64,000 nt of DNA from Thermoplasmata archaeon (lineage in GTDB: Archaea; Thermoplasmatota; Thermoplasmata; Lutacidiplasmatales; UBA184). The first letter of the stretch is position 1. Each line of letters starts with the position of its first letter. The stretch lies in the NCBI GenBank assembly GCA_021819135.1, contig JAKASE010000005.1:25882-89881 (forward strand). Direction: 5' to 3'. Positions 622 to 19,268 of this stretch are shown here, piece after piece. A program made the position numbers and the translations under genes. The notes under the pieces are model-generated. The model ran no database searches and was not told the DNA's origin. It was given only the letters and a program-made list of their open reading frames with translations.

Positions 622-2463
622 CTAGAAGAGCGGGCGGTACGGCCGCTTGAACAGACGCCACTCCCCGGTGCGCGGATCGTACACCGAGTTCACGAAGCAC
701 TTCCACTGCTCGTCATCGACGTGGGGGAAGTCCGCGCGGTAGTAGTAGCCGGGCCAGCGGGTCTCCTCCCGGAAGAGCGTGTGACGGAGGACCGCTTCGG
801 CCGTCCACCACCGGTGATGGAGCTCCCAGGCCCGCTGGAGCTGGTGCAGGTCCCGGGCGCCGAGGTGATCCAGGTCCACGCGGAGCGACTCCATGTGCGC
901 GAGCCCGCGCTCGAGCAGCGGCTTGTTGGTCGAGTAGTTCGCGCTCACGCCGCCGCCGTACTCGTCCATGATCTTCTCGAGGCGGTTGAGCCCCTGGTCC
1001 GGGAAGAGGACCTCCGGGTAGACGGTCCCGGTCGTGACGTTCAGCCGCTCGGTCTGCCAGTTCCGCACCGGACGGAAGACCTCGGCCTTGAGCTCCGAGA
1101 CCCGCTCGGGGGCCACTGTGGGCGCCCCGGGGTGGTCGCGGACGAAGGCGACCGCGGACTTGCCGGCGAGGCGGCCCTCCGAGTACGATCCGCTCGAGAA
1201 CTTGTGTGCCGAGCCGCCGATGGTGTCGCCGGCACCGAAGAGCCCCTGGACGGTGGTCATCCGGTTGTACCCCCAGTGGTAGTCGTCCGCCCCGACGTCG
1301 GCGGGACCGCTCGCCCAGGCCCCGGCGCAGACCGCATGGGAGCCCATGACGTACGGTTCCGACAGGATCAGCTCGGAAGGGGTGGTCTTCGGCTCGATCC
1401 CCTGCGACGCCCAGGTGACCGCCTGGCCGATCGTCATGTTGAGGAAGTCCTCCCACCCGATCGACTCCTTCTCGGGAGTGTCGAGGACCTTCTCCGTGTG
1501 CATCAGGATCGGGCCGCGTCCCGCGAGGATCTCCTGCAGCATGAGGTGGTTCCTCAGGCACGTCGGCATCGGCTTCGCGTCGGCGTACGCCCCGACCCGC
1601 TCGCGGAGCTCGGGGAGCCGCGCGGCCTCGTAGTGCTCACCGGTGGCGTTCGTGGCCGTCGCTTTGAGGAGGAGGAACCAGGCTCCGACCGGACCGTACC
1701 CGTCCTTGAACCGGGTGACGACGAGGCGGTTCTCCATCTGGGTCATCTCCGCCCCCATCGGGATCAGGAGGGCGTAGGCGGACCCGCTCGCCCACGGCGG
1801 GTACCACGTCCGCCCCGAGCCCTCGCCCGCCGACCGGGGCCGATAGATGTGGGAGGCACCGGCCGCCGCCACGATGACCGCCTTCGCGCGGAAGAGATAG
1901 AACGAGCCGTCCCGGACGCTGAAGCCGATCGCGCCCGCGACCCGGTTCGGGTCCTTCGCGTCGGGCAGTAGGTGCGTGACCATGATCCGCTCGTAGACCT
2001 CGCTCGCGGCCTTTCGGGTCGCCTCGGCGATGATCGGCTTGTACGACTCGCCGTGGATCATGATCTGCCAGCGGCCCTCGCGCACGTACCGGCCCGTCAC
2101 GGGGTCCGTGAAGATGGGGAGCCCCCACTCCTCGAACATGTGCACGGTCGAGTCGACGTGCCGGGCGAGGTCGTAGACGAGGTCCTCCCGGGAGAGCCCC
2201 ATGAGGTCGTTGCGGACGTACCGGACGAAGTCCTCGGGCTGGTTCTCGTTCCAGCGCATCCCCATGTAGCAGTTGATGGCGCTGAGCCCCTGGGCGACGG
2301 CCCCGCTCCGCTCGATCGCGGCCTTCTCGGCGACGACGATCTTGAGATCGCGGCCCCAGTACCGGGCCTCGTAGGCGGCGCCGCAGCCGGCGAACCCGCC
2401 GCCGACGATGAGGATGTCGCAATCGATCGTATGGGTCTCGGGGTCCGGGGAAGGATCGGTCAT
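622..2463 (-). CDS. aprA: Adenylylsulfate (APS) reductase alpha subunit, copy 1
   Basis: GGGFAGCGAA FAD motif, RSGAVAQGLSAIN, GRWQIMIHGESYKP, RFKDGYGPVGAWFL, PTCLRNH, HKFSSGS, ETRWPGYYYR; 613 aa; downstream of aprB. Confidence 0.95.
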   Translation of the reverse strand: MTDPSPDPETHTIDCDILIVGGGFAGCGAAYEARYWGRDLKIVVAEKAAIERSGAVAQGLSAINCYMGMRWNENQPEDFVRYVRNDLMGLSREDLVYDLARHVDSTVHMFEEWGLPIFTDPVTGRYVREGRWQIMIHGESYKPIIAEATRKAASEVYERIMVTHLLPDAKDPNRVAGAIGFSVRDGSFYLFRAKAVIVAAAGASHIYRPRSAGEGSGRTWYPPWASGSAYALLIPMGAEMTQMENRLVVTRFKDGYGPVGAWFLLLKATATNATGEHYEAARLPELRERVGAYADAKPMPTCLRNHLMLQEILAGRGPILMHTEKVLDTPEKESIGWEDFLNMTIGQAVTWASQGIEPKTTPSELILSEPYVMGSHAVCAGAWASGPADVGADDYHWGYNRMTTVQGLFGAGDTIGGSAHKFSSGSYSEGRLAGKSAVAFVRDHPGAPTVAPERVSELKAEVFRPVRNWQTERLNVTTGTVYPEVLFPDQGLNRLEKIMDEYGGGVSANYSTNKPLLERGLAHMESLRVDLDHLGARDLHQLQRAWELHHRWWTAEAVLRHTLFREETRWPGYYYRADFPHVDDEQWKCFVNSVYDPRTGEWRLFKRPYRPLF

Positions 2464-2475
2464 CGTTCCCCCCCG

Positions 2476-2922
2476 TCAGGGCGCCGACGGCTTCCGGGCG
2501 AGCGTCGGCAGCGCCTCGACCGCGAGATAGTCCGGCTCGAACGAGAGCAGCTCGCCGGCGCGGGCCTCCGCCGGCGGTTCCGGAGCCTCCTGGGGGGCTG
2601 CGATCGATCCCCACTTGGTGGTGCGGATCGGGAAGGTGAACTCCTTGAGATCCCCGCCGCGCATCCGGATCTTCCAGGTGATGTGGGTGTCCGTCCGGGT
2701 CGGCTGCACCGAGTGGTTCATCGGAGCGAAGTCGGCGTACCCGCGGATCTCGATCGCCGCCTCGGGGCAGGCCTTCACGCAGGCACAGCACTCCCAGCAC
2801 ATCTGGGGCTCGACGTTGTACGCCCGACCCTGCGCCGGGTCGATGTGCATGATGTCGCTCGGACAGATCGTGACGCACTCCATACAGCCCTTGCACTTTC
2901 CCGTTCGGACGAATGTCGGCAT
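2476..2922 (-). CDS. aprB: APS reductase beta subunit (2x[4Fe-4S]), copy 1
   Basis: Start at ATG 2922 (MPTFV). CKGCMECVTICP and CWECCACVKACP motifs, IRGYADFAP, and the C-terminal F-x-FPIRTT tail typical of AprB. Confidence 0.93.
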   Translation of the reverse strand: MPTFVRTGKCKGCMECVTICPSDIMHIDPAQGRAYNVEPQMCWECCACVKACPEAAIEIRGYADFAPMNHSVQPTRTDTHITWKIRMRGGDLKEFTFPIRTTKWGSIAAPQEAPEPPAEARAGELLSFEPDYLAVEALPTLARKPSAP

Positions 2923-3020: not shown

Positions 3021-3062
3021 AAATACTTTCGAACGTACTTTGGACATTTGTCCGAATTTTTA
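3021..3062. promoter_or_regulatory. AT-rich divergent promoter region (aprB1 / mrp) containing palindrome TGGACATTTGTCCG at 3041-3054
   Basis: AT-rich patch in GC-rich DNA between divergent operons. The GGACA-NN-TGTCC inverted repeat recurs at 16838 and, degenerately, at 5819. Confidence 0.65.
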
Positions 3063-3216: not shown

Positions 3217-4125
3217 ATGCCGGAACCGGGGTCGGACGAACCCCAGCCGCTGCCGGTGGTGGGACAGCGCTCGTCCCCGCCGGTCGTTCCCGAGGCCGCC
3301 TTCTCGATCGGGCGGCTCGATCGTTCCCGGGTCGGAGCGGTCGTGGCGGTCCTGTCGGGAAAGGGAGGGGTCGGTAAGACCCTGGTCTCGGCGCTGCTCG
3401 CCACCGAGCTCCATCGGCACGGCGCGCGGGTCGGCGTCCTCGACGCCGACATCACGGGGCCTTCGATCGCGCGGGTCTTCGGGGTCCGGGTGGTCCCGCA
3501 GCTCTCGCCGGACGGGCTCCACATCGAACCGCTCGTGTCGAAGGGCGGGGTCGCGGTGATGTCGATGGCGTCGGTGACCGCGGCGACCGAGATCCCCCTC
3601 CTCTGGCGCGGTCCGATGATCAACAGCGCCATTCGGGGGCTCTTCAAGGACACGGCGTGGCCCGCGCTCGATTATCTCGTCGTCGATCTTCCCCCGGGGA
3701 CGAGCGACGCGCCGATGACCGTCTTCCAATCGCTGGATCCCGACGGCGTCGTCCTCGTGACCGCCCCGACCGAGCTCTCCGCCGAGGTCGTCGCGAAGGC
3801 GGCGTCGATGGCGAAGACGTTCTCCGCGCCGGTCCTCGGGCTCATCGAGAACATGGCGTTCTTCACCTGTCCGCACGGGGAGCGCGTCGACCTCTTCGGT
3901 CCGTCGCGGGGGCCCGAGTTCGCCTCACGGATGGGGATCCCCTTCCTCGGCAGCCTGCCGATCGTCCCGGGCGTTCCGGCGCTCGCGGACGCGGGTCGCA
4001 TCGAGGAGGTGCGATCCCCCGAGGCGGCGATCATCGCCGACCGGGTCCGGTTGCTGGTCGACCGGCTGCGGCGCGCGCGGACGCCCCCGGCCGGGACCGC
4101 CGGCGGGACCCCGCCGGGGGACTGA
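3217..4125 (+). CDS. mrp: Mrp/NBP35 (ApbC) Fe-S cluster carrier ATPase
   Basis: SGKGGVGKT Walker A, LDADITGPS, WRGPM, LDYLVVDLPPGTSD, ENMAFFTCPH. Confidence 0.92.
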   Translation: MPEPGSDEPQPLPVVGQRSSPPVVPEAAFSIGRLDRSRVGAVVAVLSGKGGVGKTLVSALLATELHRHGARVGVLDADITGPSIARVFGVRVVPQLSPDGLHIEPLVSKGGVAVMSMASVTAATEIPLLWRGPMINSAIRGLFKDTAWPALDYLVVDLPPGTSDAPMTVFQSLDPDGVVLVTAPTELSAEVVAKAASMAKTFSAPVLGLIENMAFFTCPHGERVDLFGPSRGPEFASRMGIPFLGSLPIVPGVPALADAGRIEEVRSPEAAIIADRVRLLVDRLRRARTPPAGTAGGTPPGD

Positions 4126-4129
4126 CGCC

Positions 4130-4375
4130 GTGACCGACGCGCCCCGGGGCCGGCAGGAGGTCGCGGTGACCATCCTCCGCGCCGTCGGCGATCCGTTCGA
4201 GGCCGAGTCGATGGAGGCCGGGCCCGCGGTGTCCGAACCCTCGCATGTCGCGCTCCTCAATCGGCTCTTCTACGACAGCACGGTCGACCTCGGCGGGCTC
4301 GTCCGCATCGGAAGCCGGACGTACGTGTGCACCCGGGCCGGTTGGCGGATCGTGCCCCCGGGTCGGGAGTCCTGA
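4130..4375 (+). CDS. Hypothetical protein (81 aa) in mrp-dsrEFH operon
   Basis: GTG 4 nt after the mrp stop; its TGA overlaps the dsrE ATG (TGATG). Confidence 0.65.
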   Translation: MTDAPRGRQEVAVTILRAVGDPFEAESMEAGPAVSEPSHVALLNRLFYDSTVDLGGLVRIGSRTYVCTRAGWRIVPPGRES

Positions 4376-4731
4376 TGGGGCACCTCGGCGTCCTCGTCTT
4401 CTCCTCTCCGCTGCAACGGCGCTCGGCGACGATGGCGGCGGAAACGATCGAGGCGGCGGTACGCCTAGGTCACTCGGTGTCGGCGTTCTTCCTGGCGGAT
4501 GGGGTCTACTGCACGAGCCGCGCCCACCTCGCGGCCCCGGAGGAGACCGTCGTCCACCGCCTCGCGCGGCTGCCCTCGTCGGTCGCGCTCGTCAACTGCG
4601 GTACGTGCGCCCGCTTCCGCGGGCTGGACGACACGACGGTCCTTCCGAACGCCCGGAACGGCAGCCTCGAGGACCTGGTCGACTCCCTCGGCGGGACGGA
4701 CCGCTTCCTCACCTTCGGGAGCGGACCGTGA
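4375..4731 (+). CDS. dsrE: DsrE/TusD-like sulfurtransferase
   Basis: GHSVSAFFLADGV, NCGTCARFRG active-site region, GSLEDLVD...DRFLTF. Confidence 0.85.
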   Translation: MGHLGVLVFSSPLQRRSATMAAETIEAAVRLGHSVSAFFLADGVYCTSRAHLAAPEETVVHRLARLPSSVALVNCGTCARFRGLDDTTVLPNARNGSLEDLVDSLGGTDRFLTFGSGP

Positions 4732-5096
4732 ACGGGTCCGAGGAGGGGGTCCTCCTCTGGATCCGGCACGCCCCACACTCCACGGTCCATCTCGGCGAAG
4801 CGATCCGGCTCGCGACGATGGGCACCGCGCTCGGGGTCCCGTTCCGCCTCCTGTTCCTGGGGGACGGGGTGCGGGCCCTCCTGCGGGGCACCGAGGCGTA
4901 TCGGCTCGGACCCCCCATCGACAAGCTCCTCACGGACGTCGTGACGGCCGAGAGCCCCGCGCTGGTCCATCGCCGGTCGCTCGAGGCGCGGGGGCTGTCG
5001 GCGGACGACCTCGCGCCCCGGGTCCCGGTGGAGCTCGTGGACGATGGGGGGGCGGCCGAGTGGCTGGAGCGGTCCCACCGGGTGGTGCCGTTCTGA
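4728..5096 (+). CDS. dsrF: DsrF/TusC-like subunit
   Basis: GTGA overlap with dsrE; RHAPH..EAIR, LLFLGDGV, SLEARGL, HRVVPF C-terminus. Confidence 0.82.
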   Translation: MNGSEEGVLLWIRHAPHSTVHLGEAIRLATMGTALGVPFRLLFLGDGVRALLRGTEAYRLGPPIDKLLTDVVTAESPALVHRRSLEARGLSADDLAPRVPVELVDDGGAAEWLERSHRVVPF

Positions 5097-5422
5097 CGCC
5101 CGCGCCCTCGACGGAGCGCCGCTGGCTCCTCCTGCGAGAGTCTCCGCTCGGTCCCGACGAGGCGGAGATCGTGGCTCGTCTCGCCGATCGGCTCGTTCGG
5201 CGCGGGATCGCCCTCGTGCCCGTCCTCCTCGGAACGGCGACGTACGAGGCCGAACCGGCGGGAGAGGCGGCGACGCCCTCGGCCCCGGCCGCTTGGGTCC
5301 TCGAGGACGACGTGAAGGGGCGCGGCCTCCGACCACCGGAGGACCGGCCGTTCCGGTCCCTATCCTACGACGAGCTCGTGGAGGCGGTCATGTCGGCCGA
5401 GCGGGTGATCTCGCTCGCATGA
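5093..5422 (+). CDS. dsrH: DsrH/TusB-like subunit
   Basis: WVLEDDVKGRGL...SLSYDELVEAV..ERVISL; third gene after dsrE and dsrF. Start is either CTG 5093 (CTGA overlap, GGTGGTG upstream) or GTG 5060. Confidence 0.75.
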   Translation: MTPAPSTERRWLLLRESPLGPDEAEIVARLADRLVRRGIALVPVLLGTATYEAEPAGEAATPSAPAAWVLEDDVKGRGLRPPEDRPFRSLSYDELVEAVMSAERVISLA

Positions 5423-5817
5423 GCGAGAGTCCCTCCGTCCCCTTCGTGCCCCTCCCGATGCGGGAGGTCCGGCGGGAGGGCGCCGGGGACTCCCCATCCC
5501 CTCCGCCGACCGTGCGCGTGGTCTACGTCCGCTACCGGGACCCGACCCCCCTCGAGTTCCCCGATCGCCCGGAGCGTCTCCCCGGCCCGGTCTTCCATGC
5601 GGCGGGGATCCTCCTCCGGGAGGACGAGGAGTTCCTCGCCCTCGGGGAGGTCGCGTGGGCGGAGGAGAACTCCCCCCTCGCCTCTCGGTACGGCGCCGAC
5701 CTGTTCCCGGCGTACCGGAACGTCCTCACGATCACCAAGGCCGCGATCCTCGAGCGCCGGGAGGTCGCGTTCCCCGGCGACGGGGCCGGGCGGAAGGTTG
5801 GTACTGAATCCCGATAA
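5419..5817 (+). CDS. Hypothetical protein (132 aa) coupled to dsrH
   Basis: ATGA overlap with the dsrH stop; globular beta-rich core (VVYVRYRDP, AAGILLREDEEFLALG, TITKAAIL). Confidence 0.7.
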   Translation: MSESPSVPFVPLPMREVRREGAGDSPSPPPTVRVVYVRYRDPTPLEFPDRPERLPGPVFHAAGILLREDEEFLALGEVAWAEENSPLASRYGADLFPAYRNVLTITKAAILERREVAFPGDGAGRKVGTESR

Positions 5818-7365: not shown

Positions 7366-8511
7366 GTGAAGCGAGTGGTGGTGCTGGGAGGAGGGATCGG
7401 CGGAACGACGGTGGCGAACCGGATTCGCAAGGCGCTCGAGGGCGAGGTCGCGAGCGGGCAGGTCCAGGTCCAGCTCGTGGATCGGGAGGGGGTCCACGCC
7501 TACCAGCCGGGCTACCTCATGGTCGTCTTCGAGAAGATGCGCCCGGAGGAGACCCGCCGGGACGAGAGCTTGCTCCTCCACAAGTCGATCCAGCTCGTCA
7601 AGGGCGAGGTCGAGAAGGTCGACGGGGCCGCCAACAAGATCGTGCTCAAGGGCGGCAAGGACCTTCCCTACGACATCCTGGTCATCGCGAGCGGTTCGGT
7701 GATCCACCCGGAGCTCACGCCCGGGTTCGTCGAGGGGGCGCACAGCTTCTACGACCTCGAGAACGCGCAGAAGCTCCGGGGCGCCCTGCACGGATTCACC
7801 GGCGGCAAGATCGTGATCTCGGTCGCCGGGATGCCCTACAAGTGCCCGGTCGCCCCGCTCGAGGTGACGTTCATGCTCGACGACTACCTCCGCAACCGCG
7901 GGATCCGCGACAAGTGCGAGATCCACTACACCTACCCGATCCCGAAGGTCTTCGGGATCGACACGGTCGCCCAGCCGATGCAGCGCCTGATGGGGGAGCG
8001 CGGGATCACCGTGCACATCCCGTTCAACGTCGACAAGATCGACCCGGCGGCGAAGAGCATGAAGTCGGTCGAGGGGGACACCCTCCCCTACGACCTCCTG
8101 ATCGCGATCCCGCCCCACCGCGGCGCCGACTTCGTGGGCGCCTCGGGGCTCGGCGACAAGGGGAACTGGATCCCGACCGACCGCTACAGCCTGAAGGCGG
8201 ACGGCCGCGAGAACATCTTCGTGCTCGGGGACGCCACCAACATCCCGATCTCGAAGGCGGGAAGCACGGCGGACTACGAGGCCGAGGTCGTGACGCAGAA
8301 CGTCGCGTCGATGGTCCGGGGAGAGGCCCCCACCGCGCGGTACGAGGGCCGCGTCTACTGCTGGATCATGACCGGGCTCGCGCAGGCGACGTACATCAAG
8401 TTCGACTATCTCCATCCGCCGCACCCACCGACCCCGTCGTTCGCGCACTACTGGAACAAGGTGATCTACAACCGCACCTACTGGGACCTCACGGCGCGGG
8501 CGCTGTTCTGA
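7366..8511 (+). CDS. sqr: Sulfide:quinone oxidoreductase-like flavoprotein (type III-like)
   Basis: GTG after GGAGG. VVLGGGIGG, YQPG, KCPVAP and VYCW cysteine pair, GDAT..KAGSTA; followed by a DUF1641 gene. Confidence 0.85.
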   Translation: MKRVVVLGGGIGGTTVANRIRKALEGEVASGQVQVQLVDREGVHAYQPGYLMVVFEKMRPEETRRDESLLLHKSIQLVKGEVEKVDGAANKIVLKGGKDLPYDILVIASGSVIHPELTPGFVEGAHSFYDLENAQKLRGALHGFTGGKIVISVAGMPYKCPVAPLEVTFMLDDYLRNRGIRDKCEIHYTYPIPKVFGIDTVAQPMQRLMGERGITVHIPFNVDKIDPAAKSMKSVEGDTLPYDLLIAIPPHRGADFVGASGLGDKGNWIPTDRYSLKADGRENIFVLGDATNIPISKAGSTADYEAEVVTQNVASMVRGEAPTARYEGRVYCWIMTGLAQATYIKFDYLHPPHPPTPSFAHYWNKVIYNRTYWDLTARALF

Positions 8512-8522: not shown

Positions 8523-9221
8523 ATGGCCAGCACTCCCGCCCCATCCGCCACGCCCCCCACGGCTCCGGGGGGACCGACTTCGCCCGACTCCACTCAGGCC
8601 CTGGTCGCGTTCGGCGAGCGTCTCGCCCGCTGGCAGGCCGACGGGACCCTCGACCGCGCGTTCTCGCTCTTCGAGGGCGCCGTCGGGATCAGCGACGCCA
8701 TCACCGACCGGATGCTGAGCTCGGCCGGCTCGACCCTCGTGGGCGCGCTCTCGCTCCTCGACTGGGTCGCGCAGGACGAGAAACGCCGGGACGCGCTGCT
8801 GTTCCTGATCGATCGGGTCGCCGAATGGAAGGAGACCGGCGCGCTCGACACGCTCGTCACCCTCGCCGAGGGCCTGGTCGGCGTCGCCCAGGCGACCACC
8901 GACCACATGGTCGCCCATGCCGGCGGCTCGGCGGTCGGGTGGGTCCAGTTCATCGAGTCGCTGCCCCCGAAGGAGCAGATGGAGCCGCTCGTCCAGGCGG
9001 CCGTCAAGGCGGCGCCGACGCTCGCGCTCCTCTCGGACTCCACGACGGTCCTCGCCGACCCCCGGGCCCGCGAGGAAGCGGTCCGCGCGGTCCCCGACGT
9101 CTCGGGGGTCTTCGCGATCGGGCGCGCCCTCCGCGACCCCGAGACGCAGCGCGGGCTGAAGGTGCTCCTCGTGCTCCTGAAGCAGCTCGGTCGGTCCACC
9201 GCCGGGACCGCGCCCCGCTAG
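8523..9221 (+). CDS. DUF1641-domain protein (SQR partner) with internal 65-aa repeat
   Basis: C-terminal GRALRDPETQRGLKVLL..LKQLG; position directly after sqr; AGGAGG RBS. Confidence 0.8.
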   Translation: MASTPAPSATPPTAPGGPTSPDSTQALVAFGERLARWQADGTLDRAFSLFEGAVGISDAITDRMLSSAGSTLVGALSLLDWVAQDEKRRDALLFLIDRVAEWKETGALDTLVTLAEGLVGVAQATTDHMVAHAGGSAVGWVQFIESLPPKEQMEPLVQAAVKAAPTLALLSDSTTVLADPRAREEAVRAVPDVSGVFAIGRALRDPETQRGLKVLLVLLKQLGRSTAGTAPR

Positions 9222-10367: not shown

Positions 10368-10387
10368 CGCGCCCCTCCGCACCGGGC

Positions 10388-11266: not shown

Positions 11267-12205
11267 TCAGGAGTACCCTCGCGACCTCAGGAACAGGTCC
11301 GGTCGGGAAAAGTTGTCGGAGAGCCGGGCCTCGCGGAGCGAGGAGCCGAACGCGAGGCTCATCAGCTGGGTGAAGTAGGCGACGGGCCGGATCACGTCGT
11401 CGCCGTACTCGGCCCGGATCCGGTCGAGGTGGTTCTCGATGTTGATCTGGCCGAGGGGACAGATCGTCGCGACGACGTCCGCGCCGGCGCGCTTCGCCTC
11501 GTGGAGGACCGAGGCGCTGAACGCGACGGAGACCTCGAGATCGCTGAGCGCGTGGCCCCCGCCGCAGCAGATCGTCTTCGCCGAGTAGTCGGTGACGACC
11601 TTCGCCCCGCAGGCGATGAGGAGCTCGTCGAGGAAGTGGGGATGCTCCGGGTCGTCCGTCCCGGGGGTCTTCCCCACGCCCGTGTAGCGCTTCGGGCGGG
11701 TGTAGAGGCACCCGTAGTACGGGGCGACCGTGAGGCCCTCGAGCGGGCGCCGTACGGCCGCCCGGACCCGGTCGGGCCCGGCCCGCCGGTAGATGAACTC
11801 GAGGACGTGCTGGACCGAGGCGTTCCCGTCGTACTCGGGGGAACCGCCCCGGGCGAGCGTCGAATTGATCCGGCCCCGGGTCGCCTCGTCCTGAACGGCG
11901 TCATTCGCGCGCGTCAGCGAGTAGACGCACCCGCTGCAGGCGGCGACGACCTCGTTCCGCCCCATCGAGCGGGCGAGCGCGAGGTTCCGCGCCGGGAGCG
12001 CGACCGACACGTCCTGGCTCAGGTTCTTCACCTCGGTCGCGCCGCAGCAGTTGTAGTCGACGATCCGATCGAGAGAGAGCCCGAGGCTCTTTAGGACCTG
12101 GCGGCTCGAGATCTCGTAGGCCTTCCCGAGGCCGTCGAGCGAGCAGCCCGGGTAGTAGGCCGGCACCGGGTCGCTCGGACCCCGGGACGGGACCGCCCCG
12201 CTCAT
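11267..12205 (-). CDS. shdrB2: Sulfur-oxidizing heterodisulfide reductase-like subunit B2
   Basis: YYPGC, YNCCGA, YYGC..RP and CCGGG CCG domains; ATGA overlap with C2. Confidence 0.92.
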   Translation of the reverse strand: MSGAVPSRGPSDPVPAYYPGCSLDGLGKAYEISSRQVLKSLGLSLDRIVDYNCCGATEVKNLSQDVSVALPARNLALARSMGRNEVVAACSGCVYSLTRANDAVQDEATRGRINSTLARGGSPEYDGNASVQHVLEFIYRRAGPDRVRAAVRRPLEGLTVAPYYGCLYTRPKRYTGVGKTPGTDDPEHPHFLDELLIACGAKVVTDYSAKTICCGGGHALSDLEVSVAFSASVLHEAKRAGADVVATICPLGQINIENHLDRIRAEYGDDVIRPVAYFTQLMSLAFGSSLREARLSDNFSRPDLFLRSRGYS

Positions 12206-12927
12206 CGGGGCCCTCCCGCCGGGGGACCTCGGGACCTCGGGGCGTGGGCCCGGTCGTCCTCGGCGAGCTGCGCCTCGAGGACGGACCGCATCCGAGACCA
12301 GCCGCGCGTGCGGTGCGCGAGGGGCCCGGTGTGCAAACGTCCGCTCTTGAGGAGCGTCCAGGCCATCCGCAGCAGCTCGCGCGTGGGGGTCTTGCGGCCC
12401 TCGAGCCGCTCGTACTCGCGGAACAGCTCCGCCTCGTCGAGCACGCCCCGGCGCAGAAGGTTCTTGGTGTACGCTCGGTCGAACCGGTCCGCCGGGCTCT
12501 CCGGCGCGGCCCCGGTCGCCGTGAGGTAGCTCCCGATGCGGTGGACGACCTCCTCGACCTTGACGCCCTTGGGGCAGCGCTCGACGCACTTGTTGCAGGA
12601 GACGCACCGCCAGATCGTCGTGGCGTACTTCCGCAGCTCCTCCTCGTATCCGATCTGGGCGAGGTAGATGAAATACCGAGGATTGAAGTCGGTGAGGCCG
12701 TAGTCGGTGTGCATGCAGCAGCCGGCGGTGCAGGTGCCGCACTGCCAGCAGCGGGAGATCGTCTCCCCCTGCGGCTCGCCCTTCACCCAGTCGAGGATCC
12801 GCGCGTCGAGGTCGCTCGAGACCCGCGACTTGAGGAACGTGTTCCAGTCGCCCGAGACGTCGATCCCGTCGACCTCGAGCGTCTCGGTCCGCTCCACCTC
12901 GACCAGCGACTTCTCAACGATCGGCAT
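12202..12927 (-). CDS. shdrC2: sHdr subunit C2 (ferredoxin-like)
   Basis: MPIVEKSL..VDGIDVSGDWNTF N-terminus, CWQCGTCTAGC, CVSCNKCVERCP. Confidence 0.92.
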   Translation of the reverse strand: MPIVEKSLVEVERTETLEVDGIDVSGDWNTFLKSRVSSDLDARILDWVKGEPQGETISRCWQCGTCTAGCCMHTDYGLTDFNPRYFIYLAQIGYEEELRKYATTIWRCVSCNKCVERCPKGVKVEEVVHRIGSYLTATGAAPESPADRFDRAYTKNLLRRGVLDEAELFREYERLEGRKTPTRELLRMAWTLLKSGRLHTGPLAHRTRGWSRMRSVLEAQLAEDDRAHAPRSRGPPAGGPR

Positions 12928-13630
12928 CGGATAGGCGCCTCCGGACACCGAGGACGATCGTGGCGAGGGGGAACGCTCCGGGAAGGAGCCGTTCGATCCC
13001 GCCCCCTTGAAAGCTGCGGTCGACCGCTTCCGCGAGCCGGCCCGCATAGGTGAGCGCGAGGAGGACATCGACCGCAGCGAACGTCGTGGAGGGGAACCCG
13101 AGCGCGTCGAGCTCGAGGCGGACCTCGGCGAGTCGCGCCTGGGTCCCGGCGTAGGTCTCGGGGGCCGCTCCGCCGAACTCACCGAGGATCCCGGTGCGGC
13201 GCCCCGGGTTCCAGACCCATCGGGCGAGGTGCGCGAGCCGGTCCGGCGCCGCTCCGTGGAGGAGCTCGCTCGCGAGATCGAGCCGCGCCTCGAGCGGCCC
13301 GCCCCCGAGGCGTTCGGCGACCCGGGGAAGGTCCTCCGGACCGAATCGGCCCGCTCGCGCGTCCCGCACGATCGTACGGACCGTCTCCGACCCCGTCGAT
13401 CGCTCGATCTCCGGCCGGTACGGCCGGGTCGAGACGACCCCGGCGAGGACCGACGAGAACGCCGCGGAAAAGCGGTCCTCCGGGACCGTCTCGAGCGCGG
13501 CCACGGCCCGGAACTTCTCGCCGACGGCGGACTCGAGCCGGTTCACGGTCTCGGCCCCGCAGGGGAGCACCCGCTCCCGGAACGCCCGGGCCACGAGCGA
13601 CGGGTCGGCGCCGAGGCTCGACCCGGCCAT
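12914..13630 (-). CDS. shdrH: sHdr-associated conserved protein H (hyp)
   Basis: Position between hdrA and hdrC2; DLASELLH..P, RWVW...TG, DVLLA..Y motifs. Confidence 0.82.
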   Translation of the reverse strand: MAGSSLGADPSLVARAFRERVLPCGAETVNRLESAVGEKFRAVAALETVPEDRFSAAFSSVLAGVVSTRPYRPEIERSTGSETVRTIVRDARAGRFGPEDLPRVAERLGGGPLEARLDLASELLHGAAPDRLAHLARWVWNPGRRTGILGEFGGAAPETYAGTQARLAEVRLELDALGFPSTTFAAVDVLLALTYAGRLAEAVDRSFQGGGIERLLPGAFPLATIVLGVRRRLSDADR

Positions 13631-13637
13631 CCTCCCC

Positions 13638-14675
13638 TCAGTCCCGAGCATACTGGTAGGCCCGGAGCGCCGCTCCCATCCCCTCCGTGACCGCATCCGG
13701 TATCGCCTTCGGCCCGGTCGCGGCCCCGGCGAGGAAGAGCCCGGGGATCCCCGAATCGACCGGGTTGAGGTCCGACTCCCGGGGTGTGAGGAACCCCTCG
13801 GGTCCGACCGGGAGTCCGAAGAGGGAGGCGACGTCGCGGGTTCCGGCGCTCGGCTCCATGCCGCTCGCGAGGATGATCATGTCGAACGGCACCTCGGTCG
13901 GCCGGCTCAGGATCGTGTCCTCGCCGGTCGCGAGGAGGCGCGAGCCTCCCTCGGCGAGCGTCACCTGGCCGATGCGGCCCCGGATGAACTTCACGCCGTG
14001 GTCCTGCATCGACTTCCAGTAGAGGTCCTCCCAGAGGCCGTAGGTTCGGATGTCCATGTAGTAGACGTAGGCGTCGATCTCGGGGTGCTTCTGCCGGACC
14101 TCGACCGCCTGCTTGATGCTCACGACGCAGCCCATCCGGCAGCACCAGGGGTTCCCCACCTGGACATCGCGCGAGCCCACGCAGAGGATCCACGCGATCC
14201 GCTTCGGCGGCTGGCCGTCCGACGGGCGGACGATCCGGTCCTCGTGGAGCATCTTCTCGACCTCCTTGAAGTCGAGGACGTCCGGGTACCGGCCGTAGCC
14301 GTACTCGAACTTGCGACGGGAATCGAAGTGGTCGAAGCCGGTCGCGAGGATGACCGCGGAGACCTCCCGGGTCTCGACCGTGTCGGCGTTCTTGAGGCCG
14401 ACCCGGTAGCCCTTCGCCGAGCGCTCGGCCGAGACGAGGGTCGTGCCGAGGCGACGCTCGATCGACGCGCTCCCTTCGACCCGACGGAGGAGCGGGCCCA
14501 TCACGTCCTCGGCCGGGTGGAGATCCGGCGCGAGCAGGGAGTACTGCCAGCGGACCGGATTGCCTCCCAGGTAGCTCTCGCGCTCGACCAGAAGGGTCGG
14601 AGCGCCGATCGCCGCGAGCTCGCCGGCGGCGCTCAGGCCGGCCGGTCCGCCCCCCAGCACGAGGATCGGGTTCAC
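13638..14675 (-). CDS. shdrA: sHdr subunit A (short FAD/[4Fe-4S] flavoprotein)
   Basis: GGGPAG, ATGFDHFD, CVGSRD..WCCRMGC..SIKQA, YMDIRTYG, GPKAIPD; 345 aa short form. Confidence 0.94.
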   Translation of the reverse strand: MNPILVLGGGPAGLSAAGELAAIGAPTLLVERESYLGGNPVRWQYSLLAPDLHPAEDVMGPLLRRVEGSASIERRLGTTLVSAERSAKGYRVGLKNADTVETREVSAVILATGFDHFDSRRKFEYGYGRYPDVLDFKEVEKMLHEDRIVRPSDGQPPKRIAWILCVGSRDVQVGNPWCCRMGCVVSIKQAVEVRQKHPEIDAYVYYMDIRTYGLWEDLYWKSMQDHGVKFIRGRIGQVTLAEGGSRLLATGEDTILSRPTEVPFDMIILASGMEPSAGTRDVASLFGLPVGPEGFLTPRESDLNPVDSGIPGLFLAGAATGPKAIPDAVTEGMGAALRAYQYARD

Positions 14676-15976
14676 TCGCGAGGCCCCCTACGAACGTCCG
14701 GGCCCGCCCCGGCGACGGGGGCGCCCGGGGCCTCGTCCGGAAGGACCTGGCCCTTGTTGACCGCGAAGAACGTCTCGATCTCGCCGTGGGCGGGATGGAG
14801 GAGCTCGGGCGCCGCGCCGCTCTGGAGGGCGCGCAGGTACTCCTGGAACTCCGCCTTCGCGCTCTTCCAGTCGATCCCCATCTTCTCGAGCAGGCCCTCG
14901 GCGGAGGCGCTGTGCCAGTGGACCTGGGCGATCTTGTACGGATGGGCGCCGAGGGCGAGCGCCGCGAACTGCACGTCGGAAAGGACGGGCAAGAGGTAGC
15001 TGAGGCCGTGGGCCTTGCCGATCCACTGGCTCTTGTCGAGCGTCGTGACGCAGCCGGTGTCGCTCGTGATCGCAACGTCGGCGTGCGCCTCCTCGACCAT
15101 CGGACGGATCTTCCGTAGGTTCGCGAACGAGCGGCTGAACTCCCGCTCGCTCAGGATGTGCCGGAAGCCGAAGCCGCAGCAGTCGTACCATGTCGAGTAG
15201 TCGGCGACCGTCGCCCCGAGCGACATCAGGATCCCGGACGGGACGGCCGGGCGCTGGCCGGCGTAGACCCGGTCGTCGTACACCGCGTCCTCGGGGACCA
15301 TCTTGTAGTAGTGGCACGGTTCGTGGACCGTCGCGACGATCCCGGTCACGCTCCGGGACTGCCGGGCGACGATCTCGGGGGTCATCGCGTGGACCCACTC
15401 CGAGTAGTGCACGATCTCCTCGGGAAGGACGAGGTCCCGGCCCATCTTCCGCAGGACCTCACGGACCTTGGTGCGGACGGCAGCGTTCTCGACCAGGAGC
15501 TTTCGCATCTCCTTGTAGTCGCCGTAGCTGGTCCCGCAGTGGATGAGGGGGAAATGGTCGGTCTCGTACGCCCGGTGGAAGTTCCGGGCCGCCACCGCCG
15601 CGAGCGCGGTCGGGTTCGACGTCGCCGTCCCGTGGTAGTTCCACGCCGTGCAGGACGTCTGGTGGGGTTCGTTGAGGTAGGTGCGGCCCGTCTCGTTCAT
15701 GAGCCAGAGGAGGGAGGACGGGTACCCCGGGATGTTCCCGCACTGGCCGCAGGACTTGTGGTGCCAGAGGCGGTCGGTCGGGATCCGCTTCGTCCAGCCG
15801 AACAGGGTCTTCGCCTCCACAGGGCGGTTCTCCGGGCGGATCCGGTGGACGATGAGCTCGCCCTTGTCCTCGAGGCGGTGCATCTCCTCGCGGACATCGA
15901 CGACCTTCTTGCCCGTCCCCTTCTGGTGGACGTTCCGTTCTTCCACGACCTTCCGGATCTCGCTCGCGCTCAGCAT
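14672..15976 (-). CDS. shdrB1: sHdr subunit B1
   Basis: KTLFGWTKRIP..LWHHKSCGQCGNIPGYP, QTSCTAWNY, WYDCCGFGFRH, DTGCVTTLDKSQ. Confidence 0.94.
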   Translation of the reverse strand: MLSASEIRKVVEERNVHQKGTGKKVVDVREEMHRLEDKGELIVHRIRPENRPVEAKTLFGWTKRIPTDRLWHHKSCGQCGNIPGYPSSLLWLMNETGRTYLNEPHQTSCTAWNYHGTATSNPTALAAVAARNFHRAYETDHFPLIHCGTSYGDYKEMRKLLVENAAVRTKVREVLRKMGRDLVLPEEIVHYSEWVHAMTPEIVARQSRSVTGIVATVHEPCHYYKMVPEDAVYDDRVYAGQRPAVPSGILMSLGATVADYSTWYDCCGFGFRHILSEREFSRSFANLRKIRPMVEEAHADVAITSDTGCVTTLDKSQWIGKAHGLSYLLPVLSDVQFAALALGAHPYKIAQVHWHSASAEGLLEKMGIDWKSAKAEFQEYLRALQSGAAPELLHPAHGEIETFFAVNKGQVLPDEAPGAPVAGAGPDVRRGPRE

Positions 15977-15993
15977 CGTCCCTCCGTTCCTCC

Positions 15994-16830
15994 CTACCCC
16001 GAGAACGTCGCCACCGTTCCCTTCATGCCGGCGAGCTCCGTCGCGAAGCGCTCCCGCGCCTCGGAGAACTCCTCCCGCCGCTCCTCGATGATGTCGATCA
16101 GCATTTCCGTGAGATCGGGGTCGAGCCCCCGGAGCATGTCGAGGACCCCGGTCTCCTCGTAGATGCGGAACAGCTCGAGCGAGGTCTGCACCGAGACCTC
16201 CCAGGAGGAGCGGGTCGTCTGGAGGACGTCGGAGGGGATCGCCTTGCGCATGATGTCGGCGCTGACGTTCCAGACCTTGTCGGAGCCGGTCGCGAACGGC
16301 CCCCAATCGCGGAAGAAGTCCGGCTGGATCATGTCGGAGGAGACCTGCGTTCCCACGGTCATGAGGAGGGTGAGCGACCGGCCGAACGGGGCGAGGGTCT
16401 TCCGGGTCGCCTCGACCCCGTGACGGACCGAAAGCTCGCGCATCACGCTGATGATCCCGGCGATGTCGTTGCCGAACCGGCAGCGCATGTTGCACGTGTA
16501 GCACTGGCAGCAGGACCAGATCTTCTCCTGAAGGGCGTCCCAGAGGGTGGTCGCGTCCCCGGTGAGGGCGATCTGGAGCATCTCGCGGGGCGAAAAGTCG
16601 TAGAACCGCGCCGCGGGGCATCCGGTCGTGCACTCCCCGCAGTTGATGCAGCCGAGCACGAACTCATGGTGCCGGGGGTCGGCTCGGAACTCCCCGAAGA
16701 TCTGCCCCGCGAGCGTCCGCTCTGCTTCCGAGAGCTTCCGCCGCCCGGTGAGCTCGAACGCGGGGGGAGCGGCGGCCTCCTCCTCGGCCAGCGAGAGCGC
16801 GCGTCGGGGAAGGTAGGCCACGATGCTCAT
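15994..16830 (-). CDS. shdrC1: sHdr subunit C1
   Basis: GCINCGECTTGCP, FYDFSPRE, IWSCCQCYTCNMRC, PDFFRDWGP. Confidence 0.93.
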   Translation of the reverse strand: MSIVAYLPRRALSLAEEEAAAPPAFELTGRRKLSEAERTLAGQIFGEFRADPRHHEFVLGCINCGECTTGCPAARFYDFSPREMLQIALTGDATTLWDALQEKIWSCCQCYTCNMRCRFGNDIAGIISVMRELSVRHGVEATRKTLAPFGRSLTLLMTVGTQVSSDMIQPDFFRDWGPFATGSDKVWNVSADIMRKAIPSDVLQTTRSSWEVSVQTSLELFRIYEETGVLDMLRGLDPDLTEMLIDIIEERREEFSEARERFATELAGMKGTVATFSG

Positions 16831-16837
16831 GATGCGG

Positions 16838-16876
16838 TGGACAATCGTCCAGAAGAGGGACCCGTGATAAGGGTTT
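16838..16876 (-). promoter_or_regulatory. shdr operon promoter: TATA/BRE-like AAACCCTTATCA (16876-16865) and palindrome TGGACAATCGTCCA (16838-16851)
   Basis: The TGGAC-N4-GTCCA palindrome has perfect 5-bp arms and lies between the TATA-like box and the ATG at 16830, over the expected transcription start. Confidence 0.7.
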
Positions 16877-16941
16877 GCACGGGTCGAAGATCGGACCGCA
16901 GCGGGATCGGTGCCAGTCGGCCCGGACGGGGGGAATGGGTT

Positions 16942-16967
16942 CGGCCCCCCGCCGGGGCGGGGGGTCG
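16942..16967. terminator. GC-rich hairpin downstream of aprA2 (possible terminator or RNA stability element)
   Basis: CCCCCCGC-CGGG-GCGGGGGG stem-loop 25 nt after the aprA2 stop; no clear U-tract. Confidence 0.3.
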
Positions 16968-16992
16968 GCCGGAAGCGCGCTGACCGATCGTT

Positions 16993-18840
16993 CTACGCCG
17001 GCGCGACCGGTACGGTCGGCTTCGCCATGGGCAGGTACTTCACCTTCTCCATGGTCCAGATCCCCGAGACCGGGTCCCGCCGAGAGACGAGGAAGAGCTT
17101 CCAGTTCTTGTCGTCGACCTTCGGGAAGTCGGAGCGGTAGTAGTAGCCGGGCCAGCGCGTCTCCTCCCGGGCCAGCGTGTGGCGGACGACCGCCTCGGCG
17201 GTCCAGACCCGGTGGACGAGCTCCCACGCCCGCGTGAGCTGGTGCAGGTCCTCGGCCCCGAGGTACTCGAGGTCCTCGCGCAGCATCGTCAGGAGCTCGA
17301 GGCCGCGGTTCAATAGGTCCGCGTTGGTCATGTAGTAGGACGTCCAGCCGCCCGCGTACTCGTCCATGATCTTCTCGAGGCGCTTCAGACCCTGGGACGG
17401 GTAGAGGTAGTACGGCGAGACGGTCCCCTGCGTGATGTAGTTGCGGCCGACCTTGTAGTTCTCGAGGGGCTGGAAGATCTGCTCCCCGTACTTGTCGACG
17501 GTCGCGGTGTCGAAGGCGGGGACGTGCAGTTCGTGGTCACGGACGAACCGCACCGCGCTCTTGCCCGCGATACGGCCCTCGGCGAACGAACCCGAGGAGA
17601 ACTTGTGGGCGGCGCCGCCCGCCGCGTCGCCCGCGGCGAAGAGTCCGGTCACCGTCGTCATGTGGTTGTAGCCCCACTGGTACTCCTTCGGCGCGACGTC
17701 CTCGGGGCCGCTCACCCAGGCGCCCGCGTTGACCGCGTGCGAGCCCATGATGTACGGCTCCGTCGGCATGATCTCGTAGCCGCGGGTCGCGGGGTCGTGG
17801 TTCTGGGACGCCCAGAGCCCCGCCTGGCTGATGGTCATGTCGAGGAAGTCCTCCCAGCCGGCCTCGACCTTCTCCGGGGTGTCGAGGACCTTGTCCGTGT
17901 GCATGATGATCGGTCCGCGGCCCTCCTTCAGCTCCTCGATCATGAGGTGGTTCCGCAGGCACGTCGGCATCGGCTTCGCGTCGGCGTAGTCGCCCACGAG
18001 GGGCCGGAGCTTCTCGCGGTTGTTCTCGTAACGCTCGCCGAGACGGTTGGTCGCGTAGGCCTTCAGGTAGAGGAACCACGCCCCGACCGGGCCGTAGCCG
18101 TCCTTGAACCGGGTCGGGATGAGCCGGACCTCCATCTGGGTCATCTTGGCGCCGGCCTGGATCTCGAGCCCGTAGGCGGACCCCGAGCTCCAGGGCGAGT
18201 ACCAGGTACGGCCCCAGCCCTCTCCGACGGACCGGGGTCGGAAGATGTGCGTCCCCCCGCCCGCGGCGAGCACGACCGCCTTCGCCTTGAAGACGAGGAG
18301 CGAGCCGTCCCGCCCGTCGAACCCGATCGCGCCGGCGACCCGGTTCGGGTCGTTCTTGTCCATGAGGAGGTGGGTGATGACCGCGCGGTTCACGACCTCG
18401 CTCGCGGCCTTCCGTCCCGCCTCGGCGACGATCGGCTTGTAGCTCTCGCCGTGGATGAGGATCTGCCAGCGGCCCTCCCGGACGTACTTGCCCGTCTTCT
18501 CGTCCTTGATGATCGGCAGGCCCCACTCCTCCATGAGCCGGACGGAGGGGTCCACGTGGCGGCCGACATCGTAGTTGATGTCCTCTCGGACGAGGCCCAT
18601 CAGGTCGCCCTTCGCGTAGTTCACGAAGTCCTCGACCTTGTTCTCGCCCTCCTCGTAGCCGAGGTAGGTGTTGATCGCCGACAGTCCCTGGGCGACCGCA
18701 CCGCTGCGGTCGATGTGGGCCTTCTCGGCGATGACGATCTTGAGGTCCTTCCCCCAGAAGCGGGCCTCGTAGGCGGCCCCGCACCCCGCCATCCCACCGC
18801 CGACGATCAGGATGTCGGAGTCGACGTGCTTGACGTTCAT
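16993..18840 (-). CDS. aprA: APS reductase alpha subunit, copy 2
   Basis: GGGMAGCGAA, RSGAVAQGLSAINTY, GRWQILIHGESYKP, RFKDGYGPVGAWFL, HKFSSGS, ETRWPGYYYR; 615 aa. Confidence 0.95.
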   Translation of the reverse strand: MNVKHVDSDILIVGGGMAGCGAAYEARFWGKDLKIVIAEKAHIDRSGAVAQGLSAINTYLGYEEGENKVEDFVNYAKGDLMGLVREDINYDVGRHVDPSVRLMEEWGLPIIKDEKTGKYVREGRWQILIHGESYKPIVAEAGRKAASEVVNRAVITHLLMDKNDPNRVAGAIGFDGRDGSLLVFKAKAVVLAAGGGTHIFRPRSVGEGWGRTWYSPWSSGSAYGLEIQAGAKMTQMEVRLIPTRFKDGYGPVGAWFLYLKAYATNRLGERYENNREKLRPLVGDYADAKPMPTCLRNHLMIEELKEGRGPIIMHTDKVLDTPEKVEAGWEDFLDMTISQAGLWASQNHDPATRGYEIMPTEPYIMGSHAVNAGAWVSGPEDVAPKEYQWGYNHMTTVTGLFAAGDAAGGAAHKFSSGSFAEGRIAGKSAVRFVRDHELHVPAFDTATVDKYGEQIFQPLENYKVGRNYITQGTVSPYYLYPSQGLKRLEKIMDEYAGGWTSYYMTNADLLNRGLELLTMLREDLEYLGAEDLHQLTRAWELVHRVWTAEAVVRHTLAREETRWPGYYYRSDFPKVDDKNWKLFLVSRRDPVSGIWTMEKVKYLPMAKPTVPVAPA

Positions 18841-19268
18841 CGGTGGCCTCCCTTCACGGTCCCGAAGTGGGGCCCCTCATGCGCCAGGAGCTCGTTGTTC
18901 AGGGTCGGGTCCTTCAGGGTCGGGCCGGTCGGGACCTTGATCGAGTCCCACGGGGTGGTGCGGATCGCGAAGTCGAACTTCTTGACCGTCTTCTGGTCCC
19001 GATACTTGATCTCCCAGGCGATGCGGTTGGTCTTCTCGTCCCGCAGGACGGTGACCTCCGAGAGCATCGGGGAAATGTCCGCGTAAGGACGGACGCTGAT
19101 CGCGTGCTCGGGGCAGGTCTTCACGCAGGAGAAGCATTCCCAGCACATGTCCGGCTCGAGGTTGTAGGAGAAGTTCGTCTCCTTGTTGACGAACATGATG
19201 TCGCTCGGGCAGATCTCCATGCACTTTCCGTTGTTCTTGCACAGCTTCGGGTTCACGTAGGTTGGCAT
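18837..19268 (-). CDS. aprB: APS reductase beta subunit, copy 2 (first cluster motif CKNNGKC)
   Basis: MPTYVNP start with GGAGGAG RBS, CWECFSCVKTCP, FAIRTT tail; ATGA overlap with aprA2. Confidence 0.92.
   Translation of the reverse strand: MPTYVNPKLCKNNGKCMEICPSDIMFVNKETNFSYNLEPDMCWECFSCVKTCPEHAISVRPYADISPMLSEVTVLRDEKTNRIAWEIKYRDQKTVKKFDFAIRTTPWDSIKVPTGPTLKDPTLNNELLAHEGPHFGTVKGGHR

Follow-up and report, generated by a model that had tools for sequence, protein, structure and literature searches.

To our knowledge, the electron exchange of dissimilatory adenosine 5'-phosphosulfate (APS) reductase, Apr, has been settled for the Qmo complex only, and there only in part; we know of no biochemical study of AprM, and of no explanation for organisms that have neither AprM nor Qmo. 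The DNA described here is a stretch of 64,000 nucleotides (nt) from a Thermoplasmata archaeon, C12:25882-89881 of a genome (G000) of 2.20 Mb in 47 contigs, and is called the window (contig C12 is JAKASE010000005.1). Two gene pairs for Apr, aprBA1 and aprBA2, and a complete sHdr-LbpA gene set are coded in a 19-kb block of the window, which is the right-hand half of a dissimilatory sulfur island of at least 43 kb (C12:2527-45200). The electron partner of Apr in this organism and its family is the main subject of this text. Among described systems, aprM-aprBA-sat loci of Thioglobus/SUP05, Pelagibacterales, Thiobacillus, Sulfuriferula, and archaeal metagenome-assembled genomes (MAGs) of a sister family have the same aprB-aprA-sat order and the same inferred role in the conversion of sulfite to APS. 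The 80 closest aprA loci of named genomes, mostly from Proteobacteria and with three archaeal MAGs (L008, L009, and L025), were used for comparison, and those closest to the island carry the labels 'archaeon' and 'Thaumarchaeota archaeon'. In 74 of the 75 named loci with at least 900 nt upstream, the three archaeal ones included, a multi-helix open reading frame (ORF) of 180-340 amino acids (aa) ends within 150 nt of aprB; these ORFs were assigned to the five-helix AprM by position and N-terminal similarity, and such a gene is missing from G000 and 15 members of its family. A further likeness to the island is that 6/80 loci (three archaeal and three proteobacterial, all six with AprM) have sHdr genes no more than 10 kb from aprA.

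The type I sHdr-LbpA system is reportedly known from Hyphomicrobium denitrificans and Sulfolobales through work of the Dahl laboratory. Its genes follow the same order, shdrC1B1AHC2B2, and are accompanied by lbpA, tusA, a carrier of the dsrE type, and a dedicated ligase for lipoate, but here the set is part of an island in which two aprBA pairs, dsrEFH, dsrABCMK, and Etf/Fix genes are found as well. A predicted operator common to shdr and aprBA1 and an Lrp-type regulator upstream are further differences, as the regulator of the Hyphomicrobium sHdr locus is said to be of a type other than Lrp. In the QmoABC-AprBA systems of sulfate reducers and Chlorobi (Ramos et al. 2012, PMC3333476; Neukirchen et al. 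2023, PMC10504309), AprBA belongs to the same enzyme family, but G000 has neither a QmoC-type subunit nor an HdrA-like gene beside aprBA, and its HdrA coded on contig C40 does not track Apr. All four subunit types of the electron-bifurcating EtfABCX/FixABCX complexes of Thermotoga maritima and Azotobacter vinelandii (PMC10734219 and PMC13761266) are likewise present in the island, with the difference that fixX in the family studied here is syntenic with aprBA, and often with sat. Non-ammonia-oxidising Nitrososphaeria MAGs from acid mine drainage, in the passages on them in PMC10833072, share the habitat type and the dsrAB/aprAB/sat markers. The same passages note dsrCEFH in one Nitrososphaeria MAG (Luo et al. 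2024, PMC10833072); the string 'hdr' had 0 occurrences in the main text as accessed, and no discussion of Apr partners was seen in its sulfur-gene passages. In the literature searched, which did not extend to the supplements (gene tables of PMC10833072 and PMC10504309, which may list such genes), no mention of an Apr-Etf/Fix linkage and no description of an Apr-sHdr module was found.

The whole is best explained, with a probability of roughly 0.55, by an oxidative island with a FixX-type partner of Apr, a regulatory link between apr and shdr, and AprBA2 as a paralogue belonging with dsr. The comparison within the family covered 42 aprBA loci of relatives, annotated by tblastn with island proteins, and 150 genomes for phyletic counts (AprA at E<=1e-100; the AprA, FixC, and sHdrB1 counts were taken as referring to the same 150 genomes, as their genus make-up is identical). 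In this family, fixX, the gene for the small iron-sulfur subunit of an electron-transfer flavoprotein:quinone oxidoreductase, holds the genomic position of aprM. It lies directly upstream of aprB and on the same strand in 25/36 AprBA1-like loci from five genera, with gaps of 13-226 nt, and in 0/5 AprBA2 loci in which aprB was found. The 11 exceptions are ten loci with ABC-transporter-like neighbours (ABC-type loci) and the locus of G210, which is rearranged in the same way as that of G000. At 17 of the 25 fixX-aprB loci, fixC and etfAB are coded in the same fetched stretch. Seven loci of the genus g70 have a compact, stand-alone arrangement etfB-etfA-fixC-fixX-aprB-aprA, with fixC on the opposite strand and only 13-20 nt between fixX and aprB. 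The order fixX-aprB-aprA-sat, which mirrors aprM-aprBA-sat, was found in G266, G244, and G104, and in G002 sat follows about 1.1 kb downstream of aprA. FixC or EtfB was detected within 10 kb in 0/80 AprM-type loci. Island-type FixC (at least 57% identity, E<=1e-120) is present in 32/150 family genomes, 23 of them with AprA, and the 18 Apr-bearing genomes without it are mostly ABC-type or AprBA2-only.

In G000 itself, fixC, fixX, etfB, and etfA were identified on contig C12 to the left of the window, together with two tauE genes and a DUF1634 gene. EtfB matched PF01012 (122 bits), EtfA the FixB-family model NF002889 (151.8 bits, below the cut-off), FixC the ETFQO_UQ-bd domain (35.6 bits, cut-off 27.7), and FixX the Fer4_ETF_QO domain (29.1 bits, cut-off 24); by these domain matches, all four subunit types of EtfABCX/FixABCX are encoded in the island. 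The earlier note on this DNA had pointed to the absence of Sat, Qmo, and AprM. Neither sat, qmo, nor aprM is present inside the window, which is due to where the window starts: sat was found 7.7 kb left of its edge on the same contig, so the statement on Sat is true for the window only and not for the genome. The lack of AprM holds genome-wide at 91% completeness, and also for 15 family members. A hidden Markov model built from 74 AprM sequences, which score 1e-74 to 1e-138 themselves, had no match with E<=10 in G000, for which 22,243 six-frame ORFs were searched, and the best tblastn match had an E value of 0.27. With an alignment of eight AprM rows, 15/151 genomes of the class were matched, including 10/10 of the family f10, but 0/15 of the own family f1 and not G000. 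For Qmo, the statement stood with respect to the membrane subunit QmoC, as the only PF02665 (NarI-like) match in G000 is dsrM, and the qmoC model NF038018 had only faint partial matches on DsrK and an HdrD-like protein. HdrA paralogues, by contrast, are present in three places of the genome (contigs C20, C31, and C40), none of them near aprBA.

The link of aprBA1 with shdr is indicated by an operator-like site. The pattern GGACRAWTGTC occurs three times in the window, where 0.10 occurrences are expected and 0/100 shuffles reach three, a comparison that is circular as the pattern was derived from the same sites. Independent support comes from its rarity, with four copies in the whole 2.2-Mb genome, and from the relatives, and the common motif of aprBA1 and shdrC1 described by the earlier note was borne out in this way. 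In 18/25 fixX-aprBA loci of relatives, the site recurs 95-119 nt ahead of aprB. Ahead of shdrC1, at a distance of 10-25 nt, it is present in G014 and, in a version with one mismatch, in G002 and G018; a GGAC-N4-GTCC match is found 25 nt before shdrC1 in G210. No such site was found before shdrC1 in G004, nor in front of those aprB genes of AprBA2 type and ABC type that were examined. As the site is shared and recurs in relatives, aprBA1 and shdr probably form one regulon, with the palindrome-like GGAC-N4-GTC site as the predicted operator and the adjacent Lrp-type protein as a candidate regulator. The motif came from the inverted repeat, and exact 9-12-mers common to the intergenic regions were only G+C-rich words at chance level. 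The fourth genomic copy, GGACGATTGTC at C19:25992-26002 on the minus strand, lies within a 221-aa ORF (25857-26522) or at its start. Its product, with an N-terminus like a PP-loop ATPase and possibly a thiolation protein, could be another member of the regulon.

Both AprA and both AprB exceed the TIGR02061/TIGR02060 equivalog cut-offs and are thus true dissimilatory APS reductase pairs; their structurally solved relatives are AprBA of Archaeoglobus (1jnr and 2fja, E 4e-214) and Desulfovibrio (3gyx). AprA2 is 66% identical to AprA1 and 61-67% identical to AprA of aprM-aprBA-sat loci. In a maximum-likelihood tree of 22 chosen AprA rows, rooted at the midpoint only, AprA1 was classified together with the fixX-linked AprA of G002 and G018 (100/100 support), and AprA2 with the dsr-linked AprA of G008 (100/100 support, branch length 0.6). 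Orthologues of AprBA2 stand beside dsrKMBA and dsrN in G008, G243, and G254. In G000 and G210, aprBA2 occupies the space between lrp and shdrC1. AprBA2 is a divergent paralogue in its own right and goes with dsrABMK. In G002 and G014, lrp lies directly upstream of shdrC1, so aprBA2 looks inserted between these two genes. AprB1 has two complete CxxCxxCxxxCP motifs. The first cluster motif of AprB2 (18837-19268) reads C-x5-C-x3-CP without the second Cys, which leaves one [4Fe-4S] cluster a Cys ligand short; in an alignment of 14 rows, this loss is shared with the G008 orthologue (L106:8576-9046), and the other 12 AprB keep the full motif. The altered motif presumably binds the surface cluster contacted by the partner.

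A chimeric assembly of the aprA2-shdrC1 junction was considered and ruled out, as both aprBA2 junctions are spanned, with 0 differences, by contigs of two public runs that belong to a single study (one of the runs may be the source sample) and the layout is the same in G210. In run X5, one contig links position 16883 to 19581 and skips 2697 nt with aprBA2; its short side is 25 letters long, at a likeness threshold of 88. This contig, with a layout like lrp-shdrC1 of G002 and G014, probably comes from a co-occurring relative and is a weak hint only. Inside the AprA1 clade, G012, G017, and G021 form a subclade whose loci hold no sulfur genes and, in convergent orientation, three ABC-transporter-like genes. 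This third kind of aprBA (L110-L113, L147, L148, and L150-L153) is 72-76% identical to AprA1, and no fixX, sHdr, dsr, sat, fixC, or etf was found in the fetched stretches of its loci. The three convergent genes in L110-L113 code for 274, 269, and 327 aa and resemble an ABC transporter. The third subclade may handle sulfite released from organosulfonates.

In the proposed mechanism, the host would be an aerobic archaeon with DNA in mine-drainage metagenomes. Sqr would oxidise sulfide to sulfane sulfur, which TusA, DsrE2, and DsrE would carry to type I sHdr-LbpA; from the known role of its family, sHdr-LbpA would release sulfite. AprBA would then form APS from sulfite and AMP, and Sat would convert APS to sulfate and ATP, with two TauE sulfite exporters alongside the route. 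The synteny suggests that electrons of AprB would pass over FixX and FixC to the quinone pool and to a haem-copper oxidase, and a link to NAD(H) could be made by EtfAB. For AprBA2 and Dsr, either direction is possible. The route from sulfide over sulfane sulfur and sulfite to APS had been put forward in the earlier note and is plausible. We infer the direction of flux, the function of the operator, and the contact between FixX and AprB from the DNA.

The FixX-linked electron-transfer flavoprotein (ETF) and ETF:quinone oxidoreductase (ETF-QO) are the strongest lead to the Apr partner, as suggested by synteny and co-occurrence among kin. That a complex of the EtfABCX/FixABCX type, entered via FixX, is a third class of Apr redox partners after QmoABC and AprM is a tentative proposal with odds somewhat short of even. 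Through such a partner, the sulfite/APS couple, with a potential of about -60 mV, would be connected with the quinone pool, and possibly also, by flavin-based bifurcation or confurcation, with NAD(H) and ferredoxin. Several observations weigh against this proposal and the oxidative reading around it. In G000 and G210, fixX is not adjacent to aprB1 but lies about 8 kb off beside sat. Ten AprBA1-like loci with ABC-type neighbours and all AprBA2 loci are without fixX, and therefore Apr can work with something else. Island-type FixC occurs in 9 genomes in which AprA was not detected, and four genomes with fixX-aprBA have no intact island-type FixC at the threshold used. The predicted operator stands between fixX and aprB in 18/25 loci, so the two may be separate transcripts. 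All the MAGs compared are incomplete, G000 being about 91% complete, and the relatives are kin, by which the counts overstate independence. The direction of flux is read only from dsrEFH, sHdr, Sqr, and the oxidase; DsrA (290, cut-off 393) and DsrB (310, cut-off 342) are below the NCBIfam equivalog cut-offs, as are DsrK and DsrM.

A different partner had been favoured in the earlier note, namely sHdrA or sHdrC in direct contact with AprB, in a dedicated Apr-sHdr module in place of Qmo and AprM. The gene arrangement on which this was built is correct: aprA2 precedes shdrC1 on the same strand, at a distance of 162 nt. The operator-like site is common to aprBA1 and shdr, sHdrA is an HdrA homologue like QmoA (the latter according to the Qmo passages of PMC10504309), and 19 of the 21 family genomes with sHdrB1 (21/150) also have AprA (41/150). 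This co-occurrence is also what would be expected if Apr removes sulfite, the product of sHdr; the only sHdr-bearing family genomes without detected AprA are G004 and G014. In the other direction the association fails, as sHdrB1 is missing from 22/41 AprA-bearing genomes, including all seven AprA-bearing ones of g70, a genus with aprBA in 7/9 genomes, island-type FixC in 7/9, and sHdrB1 in 0/9. Apr does not need sHdr. The adjacency of aprA2 and shdrC1 on one strand was found in G000 and G210 (L141) only, and the AprBA2 orthologues of G008, G243, and G254 stand beside dsrK and not beside shdr, so synteny across relatives does not favour the module. Linkage of apr and shdr is also seen alongside aprM (G037, L008, L009, L025, L035, L042, and L049). 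Furthermore, a G+C-rich hairpin and a TATA-like TTATCA box were recognised in the 162-nt spacer, with an operator-like site where transcription is expected to begin, and therefore shdr probably keeps its own promoter; sHdr would also need an electron outlet of its own and hence would be an unlikely sink for Apr. A dedicated Apr-sHdr electron module is unlikely, and for sHdrA or sHdrC as the direct partner of AprB the probability is very low; what links apr with shdr is metabolism and regulation. Hardly better is the case for a soluble HdrA-type complex, such as a set on contig C40 resembling 'type II' QmoAB-HdrBC. It has in its favour the HdrA paralogues on C20, C31, and C40, the position of the C40 cluster beside tusA and dsrE2, its presence in both genomes with AprBA2 and Dsr in a sample of 40 relatives (G000 and G008), and the greater resemblance of 'type II' QmoAB to HdrA than to canonical Qmo, as stated in the passages on type II in Neukirchen et al. 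2023 (PMC10504309). Yet C40 orthologues (at least 67% identity) were found in G003, G013, and G019, all without AprA (the G019 row is from an unpublished genome), and not in the Apr-bearing G002, G012, G017, G018, and G021, and the cluster is beside aprBA in no fetched locus.

More weight has to be given to a reductive reading, still an unlikely one for the island, by which Sat, AprBA2, DsrABC, and DsrMK would serve sulfate or sulfite reduction, with AprBA2 fed by DsrMK or another donor and unrelated to sHdr. The cluster motif of AprB2 is altered, dsrA was found in only 1/40 relatives (G008) and there beside the AprBA2 orthologue, and the layout dsrN...aprBA2-dsrKMBA is also present in G243 and G254. 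In the parts of Luo et al. 2024 (PMC10833072) on these genes, aprAB, sat, and dsrAB are read as sulfate reduction and DsrAB is placed in a reductive archaeal clade. Oxidation is indicated by dsrEFH, TusA/DsrE2, sHdr, and Sqr in the same island and by the haem-copper oxidase, and aprBA2 has moved beside shdr and its regulator in two species; DsrD was not found, in a search in which no control genome matched either. A reductive branch with AprBA2 and Dsr can coexist with the oxidative route over AprBA1 and sHdr.

The archaeal host assumed in the earlier note was confirmed, because the archaeal ribosomal protein L31e is present in G000 and only archaeal genomes among the controls match it; a search of the MAG for small-subunit rRNA had no match. 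Completeness is rated at 91.25% and contamination at 0.35%. Mine-drainage metagenome runs contain DNA almost identical to that of the window, and none of the runs found to do so is of RNA. Outside the island, a COX1 match of 478 bits represents a haem-copper oxidase gene. The G+C content of the DNA is about 70%, therefore many ORFs are spurious, and reading frames were set from the profile of G+C at third codon positions (GC3).

The features of the block, with sat and dsrABMK to its left, are listed in the table. All genes named in the earlier note were recovered with Pfam and NCBIfam profiles at or near their expected places.

Table. Features of the sulfur gene block in window coordinates (positions with the prefix C12 are contig coordinates).
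Feature	Position	Strand	Match or remark
calcineurin-like phosphoesterase, 3' part	1..578	-	Pfam Metallophos 61 bits; whole gene C12:25452-26459
aprA1, APS reductase alpha, AprBA1 type	622..2463	-	TIGR02061 925.6 bits, cut-off 641.75
aprB1, APS reductase beta	2476..2922	-	TIGR02060 160.2 bits, cut-off 135.65; PF12139 APS-reductase_C 86.3 bits
operator-like site GGACGAATGTC	2907..2917	+	overlaps aprB1 codons 2-6
operator-like site GGACAAATGTC	3043..3053	-	121 nt upstream of aprB1, in the aprB1/mrp intergenic region
mrp/apbC-like P-loop Fe-S carrier ATPase	3217..4125	+	Pfam ParA (NUBPL) 247.8 bits
dsrE	4327-4731	+	Pfam DsrE 43 bits; part of dsrEFH block 4327..5422
dsrF	about 4722-5096	+	Pfam DsrE 42.3 bits; frame from GC3
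dsrH-like	about 5090-5422	+	weak DsrH match, E 0.0089, below cut-off
conserved 137-aa ORF	5404..5817	+	no Pfam family; between dsrH and tusA
tusA, first	5853-6113	+	Pfam TusA 80.8 bits
dsrE2	6138-6593	+	Pfam DrsE_2 103.4 bits
dsrE2-like	6618-7055	+	Pfam DrsE_2 64.4 bits
tusA, second	7058-7315	+	Pfam TusA 66.3 bits
sulfide:quinone oxidoreductase (Sqr)-like flavoprotein	7366..8511	+	Pyr_redox_2 62.6 bits; NF049943 (type III SQR) 357.6 bits, below 525 cut-off
DUF1641 protein	8526..9221	+	PF07849 38.8 bits
lipoate-protein ligase, LplA catalytic domain with LplB-like C-terminus	9243..10382	-	LplA-B_cat 99.1 bits; NF053749 LplB over residues 290-369
dsrE-family sulfur carrier of the sHdr cluster	10388..10795	-	Pfam DsrE 52.4 bits
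lbpA, GcvH-type lipoate-binding protein	10809..11240	-	Pfam GCV_H 119.9 bits; frame from GC3
shdrB2	11267 to about 12172	-	CCG domains; shdr block 11267..16830
shdrC2	12202 to about 12930	-	Fer4
shdrH	12914 to about 13696	-	no Pfam match; named by position and conservation in relatives
shdrA	13638-14675	-	HdrA core 236 bits
shdrB1	14672 to about 15973	-	CCG domains
shdrC1	15994-16830	-	Fer4
operator-like site GGACGATTGTC	16840..16850	-	10-20 nt upstream of shdrC1 ATG, downstream of TTATCA box
G+C-rich inverted repeat	16920..16958	.	14-nt arms, 86% complementary; between aprA2 stop and shdr promoter region
aprA2, alpha subunit, divergent AprBA2 type	16993..18840	-	TIGR02061 911.4 bits, cut-off 641.75
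aprB2, beta subunit	18837..19268	-	TIGR02060 139.3 bits, cut-off 135.65; PF12139 59.7 bits
lrp, Lrp/AsnC-family regulator	19526..20026	-	HTH_AsnC-type and AsnC_trans_reg
znr, small zinc-ribbon protein	20137..20559	-	weak zinc-ribbon Pfam matches, below cut-off
dsrA, dsrB, dsrM, dsrK	C12:2527-7164		NIR_SIR domains above Pfam cut-off for dsrAB
sat, 522 aa	C12:16609-18177 (= L003:3609-5177)		PUA_2 and ATP-sulfurylase; PF01747 234.2 bits at C12:16735-17418

The type I sHdr set is complete and in order (shdrC1-B1-A-H-C2-B2), an order kept in at least 10 relatives with 50-90% identity, and the accessories of sHdr-LbpA, which are a GcvH-like LbpA, a lipoate ligase, and DsrE and TusA carriers, are all coded nearby. 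Many relatives (L109, L119, and L121-L134) have a second lbpA-lplA pair by DUF1641, 33-49% identical to the sHdr-linked pair; none was seen at that position in the window. The 137-aa ORF is found with 50-76% identity at the same position in every relative locus with dsrEFH, including that of G037 from another family. The phosphoesterase is a conserved neighbour of aprA1, and a similar ORF of 335 aa (likeness by sequence, with no Pfam scan) adjoins aprA in G018. Directly upstream of aprB2 there is no membrane protein gene; lrp and the zinc-ribbon gene stand there instead, a pair kept in G002, G014, and G210. Genes for a GH57/DUF3536 protein (809 aa) and an alpha-amylase-family protein (575 aa) follow the island at 20572-24733 on the minus strand, and the GH57 gene flanks znr-lrp-aprBA2-shdr in G210 as well. 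To the left of the window, dsrC (100.9 bits), a dsrE2-like gene, genes of sirohaem synthesis, and a gene for a CobB-type amidase, taken as dsrN, were also identified.

The Sat of G000 is at most 39% identical to Sat of 40 relatives (18/24 congeners have a Sat) and 82% identical to that of G210. Other family members have a different Sat, of about 33% identity, coded directly after aprA. By these identities, Sat seems to have been replaced in the sub-lineage of G000 and G210.

HdrA paralogues are coded in three places elsewhere in the genome. The cluster at C20:19376-28439 (L006) has genes for an HdrD-like protein (Fer4 and CCG), etfB, etfA, hdrA (670 aa), mvhD, a 212-aa ORF, a NiFe hydrogenase large subunit, and a maturation protease, and its predicted product is a hydrogenase of Hdr/Mvh type joined to ETF. 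At C40:22891-31602 (L007) a dsrE2-like gene, tusA, mvhD, a 929-aa HdrA/GltD fusion, a 572-aa HdrA, an hdrC-like gene, a 322-aa CCG-type (hdrB-like) gene, and a 403-aa ORF were annotated, and a second HdrA/GltD fusion of 927 aa is coded on C31. Going by the predicted proteins, C40 and C31 link sulfur-carrier genes to a soluble Hdr-like complex.

The family studied here is a clean natural case for the question of Apr partners, as AprM and QmoC are missing, by the search of G000 and 15 further members, and a four-subunit ETF/ETF-QO system is tied to aprBA by synteny in five genera. The FixX system is therefore a candidate partner of Apr that is directly testable. Mine-drainage archaea with aprAB, sat, and dsrAB have so far been taken as sulfate reducers. 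The occurrence of these genes together with sHdr, DsrEFH, Sqr, a shared operator-like site, and an oxygen reductase points to sulfur oxidation or a two-way sulfur metabolism, a reading that would bear on the generation of acid in mine waste.

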